From contig JBDROX010000044.1 of NCBI GenBank assembly GCA_043809645.1, positions 767 through 64,766 of the forward strand: 64,000 nt of DNA. Direction: 5' to 3'. This DNA is from Candidatus Magasanikiibacteriota bacterium. GTDB lineage: Bacteria > Patescibacteriota > Patescibacteriia > Magasanikbacterales > UBA922. A program made the translations under genes and the position numbers. The notes beneath the pieces are model-generated. The model ran no database searches. It saw only the letters and a list, made by a program, of their open reading frames with translations, and had not been told where the DNA came from. Below, one piece after another: positions 1,225 through 4,568 of the stretch; position 1 is the stretch's first letter, and every line of letters begins with the position of its first letter.

Positions 1225-1360
1225 ATTTCGTATAACGTTCGCGTGTATGCGATGTTTGCTGGCTGTATACTAACGCGAAGCGGTACAGCCAGCAAATATG
1301 GGTGCAGTGAGGAGGAGGTACGACGACGAACGGAACCGCATATTCTGTGTTGTACGATGT
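1225..1360. repeat. attC-like structured element A (136 bp): ATTTC-GTATAAC-GTT / stem1 / stem2 TTGCTGGCTGTA...TACAGCCAGCAA / ATATGGGTG / ...AACC-stem1' / GTTGTAC-GATGT
   Basis: Conserved ends and central motif shared with B-E; perfect 12-bp inner inverted repeat 1256-1267/1284-1295. Confidence 0.6.
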
Positions 1361-1394
1361 AATGAAAAATTTATCCATTAAAAATTATTTGGGG

Positions 1395-2213
1395 CTACTT
1401 TTTTGGGTAAGGAATTGGGAAAACTCCTTTTAACTTCATGACGGCGGGTGAAGCAGTTTTTGCATTCACTTTTGCCATAAAGTTGTACTTTTCAAGTGTT
1501 GTAAGCTCACTCGGATTCATTTCTGGGTGATATTTGTTGATTAAATTGGCCGTATCCATATCAACTAAATAACAGATTACATGGTTGGCCGCTTCAAGCA
1601 AACGATCAATAACGTCTGTTCGGTAAAGCTTGGCGAATTGGTCTAACAGGATACACGAAAAGCCTTTTTCTTTGATTTGTGCGATTTGCTGGAATACTTC
1701 TTCATCTAAAAAGTTATGAGCTTCGTCGATTGCGAGTGTGCGATTGTCACTGCCAACAACTTGCAAAAACTGTTTCACCAGGTAAGTGCCGAGCTTTTTT
1801 GTAACGTCTTCATCTAAAGTCTTGTAGTCCAGTCTGCATAGGAGAAACTTTTGGTCGTCTTTTTGCATTTCCATAAAGTCAATTTCTTTCTGGAACCTTG
1901 CCACATTTTCATCAAAGGTTCCTGTTTGCGCTTCAAATACTGTAACTTTGTCTGCCTTGCCTGCCGGAATATACGCTTGTATATCTCTAATGAGATCACC
2001 GTGAGGCTCAATGAGAATGCCTCCTCTTCCGTTGTAGATGTCCGAAATAATAATGTTTTCGATTGTTACAGATTTGCCTTGGCCTGAATGACCAAATAAA
2101 TACATGATTCCAGAACGTTCTTCTGAAGAAAGACTAAAAGTTTCTCCGTTTTCTAGTACACCAATTAGTGATAATCCTTCTTTGATGATGTTTTCCATAG
2201 TGTTTGTATGCAT
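1395..2213 (-). CDS. P-loop NTPase, HerA/FtsK/VirB4-like (Walker A GHSGQGKS, Walker B/DEAH-like AIDEAHNF), short form (272 aa)
   Basis: Motifs read directly from the translation; family assignment approximate. Confidence 0.55.
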   Translation of the reverse strand: MHTNTMENIIKEGLSLIGVLENGETFSLSSEERSGIMYLFGHSGQGKSVTIENIIISDIYNGRGGILIEPHGDLIRDIQAYIPAGKADKVTVFEAQTGTFDENVARFQKEIDFMEMQKDDQKFLLCRLDYKTLDEDVTKKLGTYLVKQFLQVVGSDNRTLAIDEAHNFLDEEVFQQIAQIKEKGFSCILLDQFAKLYRTDVIDRLLEAANHVICYLVDMDTANLINKYHPEMNPSELTTLEKYNFMAKVNAKTASPAVMKLKGVFPIPYPKK

Positions 2214-2218
2214 ATGAA

Positions 2219-2270
2219 TTAGTTAGTTAGTTAGTTAGTTAGTTAGTTAGTTAGTTAGTTAGTTAGTTAA
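2219..2270. repeat. Tetranucleotide microsatellite (TTAG)12-TTAA; on the coding minus strand it reads TTAA(CTAA)12 ending 5 nt before the ATG of the ATPase gene
   Basis: Perfect tandem repeat visible in sequence; places TAA stops in all three frames upstream of the start codon. Confidence 0.95.
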
Positions 2271-2318
2271 TAAATTGTAAAAAAAGTAGCCCCAAATACA
2301 TTATAATAATTTTTCATT

Positions 2319-2406
2319 ATTTCGTACAACGTTTCTGGCTATGCGATGTTGCGTTAGCAATATGGGTGAAGCGAAGCGGAACCGCATAGCCAGTGTTAAG
2401 TGATGT
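2319..2406. repeat. attC-like structured element B (88 bp): ATTTC-GTACAAC-GTT / stem1 CTGGCTATGCG...CGCATAGCCAG / TTGC-gtta-GCAA / TATGGGTG / GTTAAGT-GATGT
   Basis: 11/11 complementary outer stem 2335-2345/2383-2393; conserved boxes as in A, C-E. Confidence 0.6.
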
Positions 2407-2407
2407 T

Positions 2408-3016
2408 TCAATGAGAGCCCACCACTTTTAGCACAGGCTTCACATACTCATAAAATGGCTCAAACTCTGTATAAAGGTAAGCGTCTATTCCTGCCAGTTT
2501 TGCTCCCTCAACATGTGAAGCCGTATCATCAGTATACAAGATTTTGTCTTTATTAACGCCGAGCTCTCGGAAAATAAATTCATAAAATTCTGCCTGAGGT
2601 TTTTTGCTGCCAATTTCAGCGGAAGAAAAAATGCCGTCGAACAATTTTTCAAAGCCCATTTCATTTCTCATGTACTGTGTTCGGTATTTTTCTTGGTTGG
2701 TTGCCAGATAACACGAGACGGCATTTTTTCGTAACTCTCGAATTAAATCTACTACTTTTTGATCTGTTTTGTGCTCATATTGGAACCATTGCAGCAAAAA
2801 ACCGTCTACATCTCCATCCCATTTCCACTTTTTGAGCCACGGAACAATAACTTCCTTCAAGTCAGCTCTGCCTGTGAGGCACTCTTGAAAAATGCCTTTG
2901 TAGAAAGGAAGCATGTCGTCTGGAGATAAGCCTTGTGTTTGTTGGTAGTGAGTGCCGAACATCTCGGAGCGAATGACTACGCCGTCAGCATCAAAAAGTA
3001 TTACTTGTTTGTTCAT
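2408..3016 (-). CDS. HAD-superfamily hydrolase
   Basis: N-terminal DxDG motif (ILFDADGVV), conserved HAD motifs III/IV (SKKPQ...YTDDT). Confidence 0.8.
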   Translation of the reverse strand: MNKQVILFDADGVVIRSEMFGTHYQQTQGLSPDDMLPFYKGIFQECLTGRADLKEVIVPWLKKWKWDGDVDGFLLQWFQYEHKTDQKVVDLIRELRKNAVSCYLATNQEKYRTQYMRNEMGFEKLFDGIFSSAEIGSKKPQAEFYEFIFRELGVNKDKILYTDDTASHVEGAKLAGIDAYLYTEFEPFYEYVKPVLKVVGSH

Positions 3017-3061
3017 AAGAATTTTATGAATTTATTTTACAGAGATGTGGCTCTCATTGAA

Positions 3062-3214
3062 ATTTCACTTAACGTTCGCGTGTATGAGAAGTTTCGCCGA
3101 CTTCCTTATTATTTTAACATAGAGGAGGCGAAATTTGGGTGAAATAAAAAGTGCAACCGCTTAAAATCATTACCGCACTTTTTCTTGAACCTCATACACG
3201 CTGTTAGGCGATGT
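3062..3214. repeat. attC-like structured element C (153 bp): ATTTC-ACTTAAC-GTT / stem1 CGCGTGTATGAG...CTCATACACGC / TTTCGCC...GGCGAAA / TTTGGGTG / GTTAGGC-GATGT
   Basis: Outer stem 3077-3088/3191-3201 complementary; both core boxes fit RYYYAAC / GTTRRRY. Confidence 0.6.
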
Positions 3215-3220
3215 AAAATC

Positions 3221-3697
3221 TTATAAATAAAATTCTCCCAGAAGTTGAAAAATTTCTTCACTGCCAGTTTGCATTTCTTCTTTTTTTATCGATTTCAAAT
3301 CTATCCAACGTGGTTTTTCCGATTCATCTTCTTGATCTACTTTATCGTCATCTAATAATTTAGTAGTTACTGCTTTACAGAGATAAAAAAAGGACAAATT
3401 CTGGTACGCCTCATCTAATGGCTCATAATAGAAAAATACTTCCTGAAATTTGAGAAATTTTTCAACTTCTATTTCAATGCCCGTTTCTTCGCGTACTTCA
3501 CGTTTAATTGCATCCTCAAGTTTTTCCCCCAAATCAACACCACCACCCGGAAACCAATATTTACCAGTACTCTTAGTGTTACACAGTAATACTTTTCCAT
3601 TATTAATAATGATTGCATATCCAGCAGGACGAAAAACCAGCTTATCTTTTGCAATCATCTTTTTATCACCATGTAAAGTTGTACATTCTACTAGCAT
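3221..3697 (-). CDS. NUDIX hydrolase
   Basis: Nudix box GGGVDLGEKLEDAIKREVREETGIE. Confidence 0.85.
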   Translation of the reverse strand: MLVECTTLHGDKKMIAKDKLVFRPAGYAIIINNGKVLLCNTKSTGKYWFPGGGVDLGEKLEDAIKREVREETGIEIEVEKFLKFQEVFFYYEPLDEAYQNLSFFYLCKAVTTKLLDDDKVDQEDESEKPRWIDLKSIKKEEMQTGSEEIFQLLGEFYL

Positions 3698-3730
3698 AGG
3701 GCATTGAAATTATTTTATTTATAAGATTTT

Positions 3731-3846
3731 ATTTCGTCTAACGTTTGCGTATATCTGATGTTGACCGGTGATAAGATACGCTGAAAGCGTATCGCCGGTC
3801 AATATGGGTGAGCGTAGCGAACCAGATATACGCTGTTAGCTGATGT
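3731..3846. repeat. attC-like structured element D (116 bp): ATTTC-GTCTAAC-GTT / stem1 GCGTATATCTG...CAGATATACGC / stem2 TTGACCGGTGATA...TATCGCCGGTCAA / TATGGGTG / GTTAGCT-GATGT
   Basis: Two nested perfect inverted repeats; stop codon (TAA) of the upstream minus-strand ORF lies inside the right-hand core box. Confidence 0.65.
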
Positions 3847-4402
3847 GCGCTTTTATTTTCTTTATAAAATCTGGCATTAACATTTCTAATTTCATGATAC
3901 TGTTCTGCAAAATTTCATCATAGATTTTTATTCTGGTTTCATAATTAGTCATTGCTCCATTATTAACTCTGTAACTTTCTCTACTTTGTATAGTTTCATT
4001 TATCTCGTTTGTAAGTTTTGTTATTTTTCTCATTTCTTCAAGTAAATCTGCTTGGTTTTTAAATAAGCTGGGACAATTCATTGTTAAAAAAGAAGAGAAG
4101 TCACCGTTTAGTTTAACTAGAGGCTTTACAATTATTTTTTTTTGTTCGAGAACATTTAGTTCTTGTAAGATTGTCTGCTTATTATCTTTAAGTTCTGAAA
4201 TATTTGTCTCTAATTCATGCGCGATTGTAGTTAAACTATTTTTTTCTTGTTTAATTGATTTATATTTGTCCCAAGCAATCGTTAGGGCAACTCCAATTAA
4301 TGCGACAATTACACCAGTAAAAAAAGAAAAATAATCAAAACTTACTGTGTTTTGCACAGGGGTATTATTTGGCTTCCATTCTGATATAGTTAAATTTTGC
4401 AT
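3836..4402 (-). CDS. Hypothetical membrane-anchored coiled-coil protein (188 aa)
   Basis: One TM helix (FFTGVIVALIGVALTIAW) followed by coiled-coil-rich sequence; no recognisable domain. Confidence 0.5.
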   Translation of the reverse strand: MQNLTISEWKPNNTPVQNTVSFDYFSFFTGVIVALIGVALTIAWDKYKSIKQEKNSLTTIAHELETNISELKDNKQTILQELNVLEQKKIIVKPLVKLNGDFSSFLTMNCPSLFKNQADLLEEMRKITKLTNEINETIQSRESYRVNNGAMTNYETRIKIYDEILQNSIMKLEMLMPDFIKKIKAHIS

Positions 4403-4426
4403 GTCTAATTGATTTTATAAAAGCGC

Positions 4427-4568
4427 ATTTCAGCTAAACGTATCCAAATATCTGAAGTTTGCTGGAGTGTAACGAAAGCAAATTTGGGTCGAAAAAGTTT
4501 TGCGTTCCTTAATTTAAAAATCTAATAAGGCAAAACTTTTGAGCCAGATATTTGGTGTTGTGTGATGT
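4427..4568. repeat. attC-like structured element E (142 bp): ATTTC-AGCTAAAC / stem1 CCAAATATCTG...CAGATATTTGG / TTTGCT...AGCAAA / TTTGGGTC / GTTGTGT-GATGT
   Basis: Outer stem 4444-4454/4545-4555 fully complementary; most divergent member. Confidence 0.55.

Follow-up and report, generated by a model that had tools for sequence, protein, structure and literature searches.

A probable integron-type cassette array with branched, hairpin-forming attC sites in a Magasanikbacteria-like bacterium

We analysed a stretch of 64,000 nucleotides from contig JBDROX010000044.1 of a Candidatus Magasanikiibacteriota bacterium (the whole stretch is called the window). Positions 1-5030 of the window are probably an integron-type cassette array of a Magasanikbacteria-like bacterium that belongs to the candidate phyla radiation (CPR), and five repeated elements in this region are probably its attC sites, written here as the bottom strand. 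We put the probability of this reading at roughly 0.8. The GyrB protein encoded in the window shares 80-86% identity with proteins from Candidatus Magasanikbacteria, so that the source is a bacterium of the CPR (Patescibacteria). Six short minus-strand open reading frames (ORFs) of unrelated functions are separated by the five elements; one element follows each ORF, and all elements lie on the plus strand. A preliminary description of the window had reported five repeats with shared ends and a shared core, and all five are present where it had placed them. The whole window was searched with the pattern ATTTCRYYYAACGTT, with up to two mismatches allowed, and the result was compared with 100 shuffles. 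Seven matches were found as against 2.2 expected, and none of the 100 shuffles reached seven.

Relatives of the elements were collected by scanning 185,579 species-representative genomes with the pattern ATTTCRYYYAACGTTN{27,57}ATWTGGGTG. The scan gave 114 loci, which were taken as fixed 8-kb blocks. By our own estimate about one locus would be expected by chance, and nearly all are true members. With six further loci, which were selected by their recombinase (see below), they form the set L001-L120. A covariance model, R1, was built from 33 copies including copies B and D of the window; its E-values are rough. R1 recovers exactly five sites in the 64 kb, all on the plus strand, with E-values of 1e-15 to 1e-19. 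All five copies fold better than their own shuffles as single-stranded DNA (z from -4.2 to -7.7). The putative attC sites and their parts are as follows.

1225 to 1360, plus strand (bottom strand as written): copy A, 136 nt, from R1 (72.7 bits) and folding; R' arm 1225-1235, crossover 1235|1236, L' arm 1245-1255, helix 2 1256-1295, ATAT 1296-1299, GG 1300-1301, branch 1302-1336, R'' arm 1350-1360.
2319 to 2406, plus strand: copy B, 88 nt, the shortest, from R1 (80.8 bits) and folding; R' arm 2319-2329, L' arm 2339-2349, helix 2 2350-2359, ATAT 2360-2363, GG 2364-2365, branch 2366-2382 with a GCGAAGC mini-hairpin, R'' arm 2396-2406.
3062 to 3214, plus strand: copy C, 153 nt, from R1 (74.8 bits); R' arm 3062-3072, L' arm 3082-3092, helix 2 3093-3132, ATTT 3133-3136, GG 3137-3138, long branch 3139-3190, R'' arm 3204-3214.
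3731 to 3846, plus strand: copy D, 116 nt, from R1 (80.3 bits) and folding (z -7.65); R' arm 3731-3741, crossover 3741|3742, 5' central part 3742-3750 with a TTT bulge, L' arm 3751-3761, helix 2 3762-3801, ATAT 3802-3805, GG 3806-3807, branch 3808-3822 with a GCGTAGC mini-hairpin, 3' side of stem 1 3823-3833, R'' arm 3836-3846.
4427 to 4568, plus strand: copy E, 142 nt, a variant with AGCTAAAC, TTTGGGTC and GAGCC, from R1 (66.3 bits) and folding; R' arm 4427-4437, L' arm 4448-4458, ATTT 4482-4485, GG 4486-4487, branch 4488-4544, R'' arm 4558-4568.

The conserved ends that had been described are common to all five copies, except that copy E deviates in the three strings given above. The R'' box RYYYAAC and the R' box GTTRRRY are found in 5/5 copies; copies A and B have one non-Y base each, and copy E has AGCTAAAC. 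Copy C is 85-94% identical to copies in about ten other loci (for example, 93.5% to that in L042), which are labelled Patescibacteria, uncultured Gammaproteobacteria or simply "bacterium".

The stems of these elements covary. In A1, a structure-blind MAFFT alignment of 33 copies, 95.6% of the cells pair, compared with 77.9% after shuffling and 31-43% in slid controls, and none of 500 shuffles matches the observed pairing. There are 170 double-change cells as against 51 in the shuffled alignments, a number that was likewise reached in none of the 500 shuffles, and 17 of the 28 pairs contain double changes. In A2, which comprises the 134 copies of L001-L050 fitted to R1, 93.5% of the cells pair versus 73.9%, and 734 double-change cells are found versus 228. 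The covariation and the preserved pairing bear out the earlier proposal that selection acts on structure.

The structure itself differs from that first described. Two nested stems had been proposed, followed by an unpaired motif on the 3' side of stem 2. Both stems exist, but a third helix between the motif and GAAC, which had been overlooked, is present in every copy, and the motif is for the most part paired: ATWT has its partner in the GAWGT that comes after stem 1, and most of the remainder lies in the third helix. In A2, the W-W pair is AT in 90 copies, TA in 29 and CG in four, and the G.T wobble in GAWGT/ATWT is present in 125 of 131 copies. The GTG of the motif starts the third helix by pairing with GAAC, and the preceding GG is extrahelical. 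At the base of this helix, GG[T/C/A] covaries with [A/G/T]CC, as in GGGTG..GAACC, GGGCG..GAGCC and GGGAAAA..TTTTCC. Because both ATWT and GG[T/C/A] are paired, the structure is a three-way junction with one or two unpaired G residues. AAC and GTT pair in 127-129 of the 134 copies in A2. Single-base bulges are absent from stem 1. The bases of the central region form pairs (C-G, G.T and 4 bp), with a 3-nt TTN bulge on the ' strand; the '' strand carries the GG and a whole helix instead of extrahelical T and G bases. The branch is at least 13 nt long in 198 of the 213 copies in which it could be measured. It should be mentioned that copies were parsed with regular expressions, which miss copies with deviant boxes, so that branch counts cover about 230 of 278 copies and the arm counts given below cover 179. 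In the rare branchless copies, helix 2 directly continues stem 1.

The stems listed for the individual copies were correct except that stem 1 of copy A has only about 7 bp; in addition copy B, for which no stem 2 had been listed, has one of 4 bp (TTGC/GCAA). Stem 1 of copy A is degenerate and chimeric. Its 5' arm, GCGTGTATGCG, is as in L071, which contains a site 90% identical to copy A, and its 3' arm, CGCATATTCTG, is as in L016 and L027. Thus, the two arms come from different subfamilies and only about 7 bp can pair. This chimera suggests exchange within a site, not at AA|C. Minimal sites (plain hairpins of 59-67 nt) or branchless sites occur amid branched arrays (L019:1050-1108, L016:3866-3932 and L095:1685-1783); they may be decayed or may be a simpler functional form. 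A hammerhead-like core, suggested by CTGATG after stem 1 in some copies, was considered and rejected: the position is really NNGAWGT, there is no GAAA, and no Rfam match was obtained.

The motif is conserved beyond the window. Among the 134 matches in L001-L050, 85 lie outside the search pattern and keep ATTTC, TAACGTT, TAT, GAWGTT, ATWTGGG, (G)AACC and TGTT. Because these unselected copies carry the motif, its conservation is independent of the selection of loci. The covariation likewise extends to the additional copies. The motif had been said to lack a counterpart in described attC sites, and it is absent from the ten canonical sequences compared (nine archaeal sites and attCaadA7; Ghaly 2022). 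An ad hoc model from nine canonical attC sites, with only seven modelled pairs (the 7-bp R box), gave no match on our copies and is uninformative. None of the motif strings is present in the supplements of the archaeal-integron paper. The suggestion that the motif marks a lineage-specific protein-binding site or a different element class holds in its first part, in that the motif looks like part of a binding site; the second part does not stand, given the array architecture and the crossover described below.

Strong covariation in three helices, conserved junction nucleotides and wobbles of the G.U type, which are common in RNA, would also suit a structured RNA, such as an mRNA stabiliser, a terminator, a processing site or an antisense small RNA. 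We consider this very improbable. In 96 loci, 141 of the 142 ORFs between elements are antisense to the model strand (median spacing, 716 nt), and no locus of the 96 has mixed strands. This strand, the bottom strand, is the one with the wobbles, and it was the more stable one in silico in 254 of 269 copies (-20.3 versus -17.6 kcal/mol, p 7e-44). The loops contain GCGNAGC heptamers, which occur 132 times on the bottom strand and not once on the top strand; GCGNAGC is an extraordinarily stable DNA mini-hairpin (PMC13037366). Because the strand with the wobbles is antisense to the ORFs, these would become C.A mismatches in the cassette mRNA. An Rfam scan of positions 1-5300 at E-values up to 10 gave only chance matches to microRNA or leader models (best E 0.29, a plant microRNA model). 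Moreover, homology breakpoints and terminal inverted repeats mark DNA exchange points, as shown below for the cassettes. Thus, of the two options in the preliminary description, a DNA recombination site is preferred and an RNA element is disfavoured, because the G.T wobbles, the lower folding energy and the GCGNAGC hairpins all mark the strand that is antisense to the ORFs as the putative folding strand.

The boundaries of one cassette could be located by comparison with another genome.

3742 to 4437, minus strand: complete mobile cassette (attC copy D, the 188-amino-acid ORF and the first 11 nt of copy E), bounded by two AA|C crossovers.

This cassette is 87% identical over 708 nt to positions 907-1606 of L095, a metagenome-assembled genome (MAG) of Patescibacteria, in which the neighbouring cassettes are different. 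The homology starts at TAAC of copy D and stops at AAC of copy E. Because it ends at the AAC of both R' boxes, the crossover corresponds to the canonical G|TT, which reads AA|C in bottom-strand notation. Between copy D and its counterpart in L095, stem 1 is identical, whereas helix 2 is wholly replaced yet still paired, and GGT/ACC has become GGC/GCC. Helix 2 (3762-3801 in the window; compared with L095:1497-1606) differs in both sequence and length. Since it has been replaced while the cassette remains 87% identical, turnover of the distal hairpins is much more rapid than that of the ORF. Within one cassette, the two ends complement each other at 74-77% of the variable R-box positions; for partners within the array the value is 34-46%. 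The inverted repeat at the cassette ends reaches about 23-25 nt.

Short, hairpin-forming, intergenic sequences in many copies also recall selfish palindromic repeats scattered between genes, that is, repetitive extragenic palindromes with their RAYT transposases, miniature inverted-repeat transposable elements or ends of the IS200/IS605 type. Such an origin is barely credible here: the element and the ORF move as one unit, there is strictly one element per ORF, on one strand and in the array only, with no copy in the other 59 kb of the window, and no RAYT or TnpA gene is found among the recurrent gene families of the loci.

The remaining features of the array are as follows.

1 to 555, plus strand: pseudogene of an IS110-family transposase (Pfam Transposase_20, E 3.7e-14), cut by the start of the window.
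587 to 630, plus strand: remnant of a sixth site (3' part, R'' arm and flank), which ends in GTTGGGCGATGT, with a match to GTTRRRYGATGT at 619-630.
671 to 1159, minus strand: cassette ORF from the ORF list, 162 amino acids, no assigned function (Pfam match below threshold only).
1395 to 2213, minus strand: cassette ORF, 272 amino acids, P-loop AAA ATPase (Pfam AAA_22).
2408 to 3016, minus strand: cassette ORF, 202 amino acids, HAD-family hydrolase (Pfam HAD_2 / Hydrolase).
3221 to 3697, minus strand: cassette ORF, 158 amino acids, NUDIX hydrolase (Pfam NUDIX, E 1.9e-18).
3836 to 4402, minus strand: cassette ORF, 188 amino acids, no assigned function, within the complete cassette 3742-4437.
4588 to 4962, minus strand: first (attI-proximal) cassette ORF, 124 amino acids, cupin (Pfam Cupin_2).
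4997 to 5030, plus strand: putative cassette/attI junction, recognised from its sequence; half-site ATTTCGTACAA|C and then TATGTATATACCAAC, with no attC body.

At the right-hand end of the array, the bodiless half-site ATTTCGTACAAC lies at 4997-5010, and positions 4997-5030 are a degenerate copy of the attI sequence TSGTTWTTATRCGAAGT, which adjoins recombinase genes in other genomes. An inverted repeat has its two halves at 4557-4581 and 4986-5010. At the other end, the 5' part of the sixth site is missing beside the insertion sequence, and R1 gives no match there; an inverted repeat (625-643 / 1212-1230) joins this remnant to the far end of the next cassette. No recombinase gene was found in the window, and positions 5011-6067 contain a methyltransferase pseudogene and a duplicated gene end. 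Since the window has no integrase gene, the array is a cluster of attC sites lacking an integrase (CALIN) with a remnant of attI.

The ends of the ORFs touch their own attC sites: the ORF at 3836-4402 and the R'' arm of copy D have 11 nt in common, and the stop codon of the ORF at 2408-3016 is 2 nt from copy B. A look-up of the exact sequence of the first cassette protein gave no record. A TTAG tandem repeat of about 13 copies (2219-2270) lies directly upstream of the start codon (2213) of the AAA ATPase ORF and may be a slippage-prone stretch in the 5' leader of this cassette. The frame of the IS110-family transposase has an in-frame TAA at 302-304, is otherwise continuous and lies directly against the first attC-like site, which is truncated. 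Since attC sites are known targets of one IS110/IS1111 subgroup, this pseudogene may represent such an attC-targeting insertion.

The site family is very widespread and apparently undescribed. R1 gave 284 matches in the first 100 loci and more in the rest, with up to nine per 8-kb block. The majority of the loci bear the label Patescibacteria; the rest bear those of DPANN, methanogen or anaerobic methanotrophic (ANME) archaea, Dehalococcoidia and other phyla. Viral contigs gave no matches to the sites, and the PLSDB plasmid collection showed no similarity to them. In the literature searched we found no integrons of this kind described for CPR bacteria; links between Patescibacteria and integrons were found only in resistome surveys.

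A tyrosine recombinase of about 270 amino acids is encoded in 13 of the 114 pattern-selected 8-kb blocks, and one further fragment was found. Its gene is always on the model strand, at the 3' end of the array, and is therefore divergent from the cassettes. Where contigs were chosen by the protein alone and had enough upstream DNA, arrays were present in three independent places (L115/L116, which share one, L119 and L120), and the attI half-site is present in all six recombinase-selected loci. Nineteen attI junctions of the form ATTTCRYYYAA|C-TSGTTW-TTATRCGAAGT were found in loci other than the window, 110-140 nt upstream of the recombinase start. In L115, L018, L119 and others, the arm TTATRCGAA occurs a second time upstream of the gene for the recombinase; this copy lies about 45 nt from the attI core, towards the recombinase, between TTGCAT and a TATAAT-like hexamer that are about 17 nt apart. 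This suggests that the recombinase may control its own promoter. On the far side of the recombinase, the genes vary from contig to contig. In L120, the same block of attC sites and cassettes is found on both sides of the recombinase gene (2599-7209 and 10238-15053), and the model scores on the two sides are identical, which points either to duplication of the array or to a repeat in the assembly.

The recombinase is IntI/Xer-like, and it lacks the IntI-specific I2 insertion. Its closest solved relative is VchIntIA (2a3v, E 4e-46). It aligns to IntI4 in two pieces, without about 43 of the IntI residues 172-240, which contain the IntI-specific insertion, and an AlphaFold (AF2) model (predicted local distance difference test score, 71) has only a loop at 180-198. 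Its score with the integron integrase model TIGR02249 is 228 bits, below the cut-off of 265, whereas scores with the archaeal XerA model NF040815 are 214-245 bits versus a cut-off of 220. In a Foldseek search, IntI4 and XerA came out together at the top, and 4a8e, 5hxy and 5jjv from the PDB were among the matches. The family has more than 6,200 close relatives, and the sources name members XerC or XerD. No canonical IntI was found in the 114 pattern-selected loci scanned; the six recombinase-selected loci lay outside that scan.

The arms of attC and attI can be compared directly. In the 179 parsed copies, the R' arm (ATTTCrnnTAAC) and the L'' arm after excision of the branch (ATWTCnnATAyn) share ATTTC-N3-TA, and their complements share TA-N3-GAWGT. 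The central region is typically 8-9 nt on the 5' strand versus 5-6 nt on the 3' strand, values that depend on the setting of the arm edges. In the five window copies, the lengths are 11 / 9-10 / 11 on the 5' strand and 7+4 / 6 / 11 on the 3' strand, so that 9-10 nt in the centre of the cut strand face 6 nt, which produces the TTN bulge. Thus, if the branch is ignored, the folded site would consist of two inverted 11-bp arms around a 6-bp centre. The right arm of attI, TTATRCGAAGT, which was not used in building the model, matches the L' consensus TATnnGAWGT, and its distance from AA|C equals the attC spacing minus the bulge.

These similarities raise the question of whether the system is simply that of the chromosomal Xer recombinases. 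The recombinase of about 270 amino acids might be the sole housekeeping Xer of its host and attI the dif site beside its gene, so that the cassettes would be integrative mobile elements exploiting Xer (IMEX), which accumulate at dif in folded single-stranded form, like CTX phage, and the system would not strictly be an integron. In favour of this, attI has a dif-like palindromic core of 11-6/7-11 with inner arms ..TAA-N6/7-TTAT.., the folded attC site imitates a double-stranded core site, and the recombinase has the length of Xer, scores about at the XerA cut-off and belongs to a very large and well conserved family. However, every recombinase contig examined that has enough upstream DNA carries cassettes at the site, and the far-side genes vary. 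The attI region also has an extra direct arm repeat within promoter-like hexamers, as in class 1 attI; we know of no dif site with such a repeat. Moreover, the array of the window lies beside pyrimidine-synthesis genes, without a recombinase, and the mechanism itself largely overlaps with that which we propose. We regard this explanation as unlikely, yet as a live alternative.

The window array could also consist of quite ordinary attC sites. In that case, the core would reflect the shared ancestry of a lineage-specific terminal structure and would be functionless, and an I2-bearing IntI encoded elsewhere would carry out the recombination. The R boxes, the array layout and the crossover point are indeed canonical. 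In addition, attC sequences are reported to resemble one another within a taxon, and for large attC sites there is mention of variable terminal structures with branches. In contrast, the core has stayed fixed while the stems turned over, even between the 87% identical cassette copies, and it is fixed across about 300 copies in MAGs labelled as many phyla. The wobble stays G.T in 125 of 131 copies with no drift to Watson-Crick pairs, and the branch is retained in the 198 of 213 measurable copies given above. The only recombinase adjacent to arrays lacks I2, canonical IntI is absent from the 114 loci scanned, and the extra motifs occur in none of the ten canonical sequences. This makes ordinary attC sites with an inert core rather improbable, and more so than a housekeeping Xer system.

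Our preferred reading, in which the five repeats are attC sites of an integron-type array, leads to the following model. The single-stranded bottom strand would fold into a hairpin that imitates the double-stranded core site of a tyrosine recombinase. The R arm would be 11 bp, formed by ATTTCRYYYAA paired with TTRRRYGATGT, with a fixed T.T mismatch and a T.G wobble. The centre would be 6 bp, with the 3-nt TTN bulge on the strand to be cleaved at AA|C. The L arm would again be 11 bp, made up of 7 bp from the distal part of stem 1, which stack on the initial 4 bp of helix 2 (GAWGT/ATWT..C), and the GG and helix 3 would exit the L'' strand at the seam between stem 1 and helix 2. The conserved string ATWT-GG-GTG would accordingly begin with the second binding arm's outer end, continue with two extrahelical G residues and close with the first pairs of the third helix, which branches from L''. 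Two IntI/Xer-like monomers, encoded elsewhere or lost from the genome, would bind both arms and cut the bottom strand at AA|C. The cut strand would then be exchanged with the dif-like double-stranded attI (ATTTCRYYYAA|C-N6/7-TTATRCGAAGT), and the junction would be resolved by replication, as in classical integrons. Because the second arm, the wobbles and the bulge are present only in the folded bottom strand, they would allow strand selection in the absence of I2; together with the branch, the wobbles and the bulge may also prevent exchange of the second strand. In classical integrons, both tasks fall to extrahelical bases together with the I2 helix of the integrase.

Several points weigh against this reading. 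How the site folds, how it is bound, where it is cleaved and what the branch does are all deduced from sequence. The likeness of the arms involves only about seven shared positions, and alignments A2 and A3 were fitted to the model. The bulge is on the R'/L' strand, opposite the canonical extrahelical bases, so that the analogy is loose. The recombinase could also, or instead, be the housekeeping Xer of its host. With no recombinase in the window and only a degenerate attI, the array studied here may be inactive. Taxon labels of MAGs are possibly unreliable.

It is quite possible, if a little short of an even chance, that these sites and the recombinase without I2 represent a distinct and undescribed integron lineage, the one commonly found among CPR bacteria and among MAGs that carry DPANN, methanogen or ANME labels. 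On the same tentative footing, recombination of single-stranded attC sites would proceed without I2, with a site that mimics the dif-like attI and gains its second arm only across the three-way junction. The system might then supply the intermediate that is lacking between Xer/IMEX and classical integrons, or have solved the same problem independently.

Comparison with known systems shows what is shared and what is not. Classical attC sites recombined by IntI (attCaadA7 and the Vibrio cholerae repeats) have the same RYYYAAC/GTTRRRY boxes, one site per promoterless ORF in a co-oriented array, the same G|TT crossover, a preference for bottom-strand folding (here as predicted in silico), the same range of lengths and a variable distal structure, and in classical integrons insertion likewise takes place at an attI beside a divergent integrase gene. 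The present sites differ in that conserved 5-nt flanks extend the arms to 11 bp. Their centre is paired and has a TTN bulge on the cut strand, whereas classical attC sites have an unpaired spacer and extrahelical T and G on the '' strand. The second arm spans a three-way junction, in which the GG is fixed and the third helix obligatory, and the junction core GAWGT / ATWTGGGTG / GAACC is conserved across phyla as labelled in the MAGs. Furthermore, the attI is dif-like, the partner recombinase lacks the insertion that contains I2, and the cassettes end in inverted repeats of about 23-25 nt.

Single-recombinase Xer systems (XerA/dif, XerS/difSL and XerH/difH) share the length and fold of the recombinase and the dif-like shape of attI. 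In XerS/difSL, the site adjoins the recombinase gene. In contrast to these systems, the top sequence matches here are integron integrases (the TIGR02249 and 2a3v matches above), there is an accessory arm repeat, and the site is always occupied by cassettes. The pdif modules of Acinetobacter plasmids are likewise small gene modules bounded by Xer-type sites. The pdif sites are double-stranded XerC/XerD pairs in alternating orientation; the sites described here are all co-oriented hairpins and have no similarity in PLSDB. The attP(+) of CTX phage and other IMEX that integrate at dif also present a folded strand as a two-arm core site to an Xer-type recombinase without I2, and they use a single strand exchange followed by replication (PMC7790495), as is proposed here. 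Unlike these elements, the array consists of single-gene cassettes in long tandem, with R boxes of the integron type and, in related loci, a recombinase gene beside the insertion site; moreover, unlike CTX, no phage is involved here, and viral contigs yielded no matches.

The I2 helix has been regarded as the innovation that enabled an Xer-like recombinase to act on folded single-stranded attC, and intermediates are missing (Escudero et al. 2020, PMC7790495). Here, integron architecture (the array, the AA|C crossover, attI and a divergent recombinase) appears to be paired with hairpin sites and a recombinase without I2. If this is true, the origin of integrons becomes directly testable, and a large pool of cassette genes would be recognised in CPR bacteria and, by the MAG labels, possibly in archaea. 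Screens based on IntI might call such arrays integrase-less clusters, or might miss them if standard attC models fail. The site would also be a compact, structure-defined recombination site with clear design rules.

Two other candidates in the window were rejected. An occurrence of GTTGTACGATGT at 19603-19614 lies inside a 306-aa ORF, has no match to the model and was regarded as chance. The ORF at 30329-31690, considered as DnaA and thus as a marker of the replication origin, has no Pfam match.

The region beyond the array contains a 114-nt direct repeat, 85% identical (5123-5236 / 6064-6177), which duplicates the 3' end of an 844-aa PyrD-PyrE-PyrF fusion gene. A sequence complementary to the R'' arm at 616-638, TTGTAGATGCCTCGCCCAAC, occurs in both copies. 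Between the copies, where an integrase gene would be expected, there are low-GC fragments of an FkbM methyltransferase (ORF 5281-5544). At 6068-10865, pyrimidine synthesis is encoded in two fusions, which is unusual, especially for a CPR genome: the 844-aa protein joins dihydroorotate dehydrogenase, a phosphoribosyltransferase and orotidine monophosphate decarboxylase, and a 750-aa protein joins a dihydroorotase-like amidohydrolase and aspartate carbamoyltransferase.

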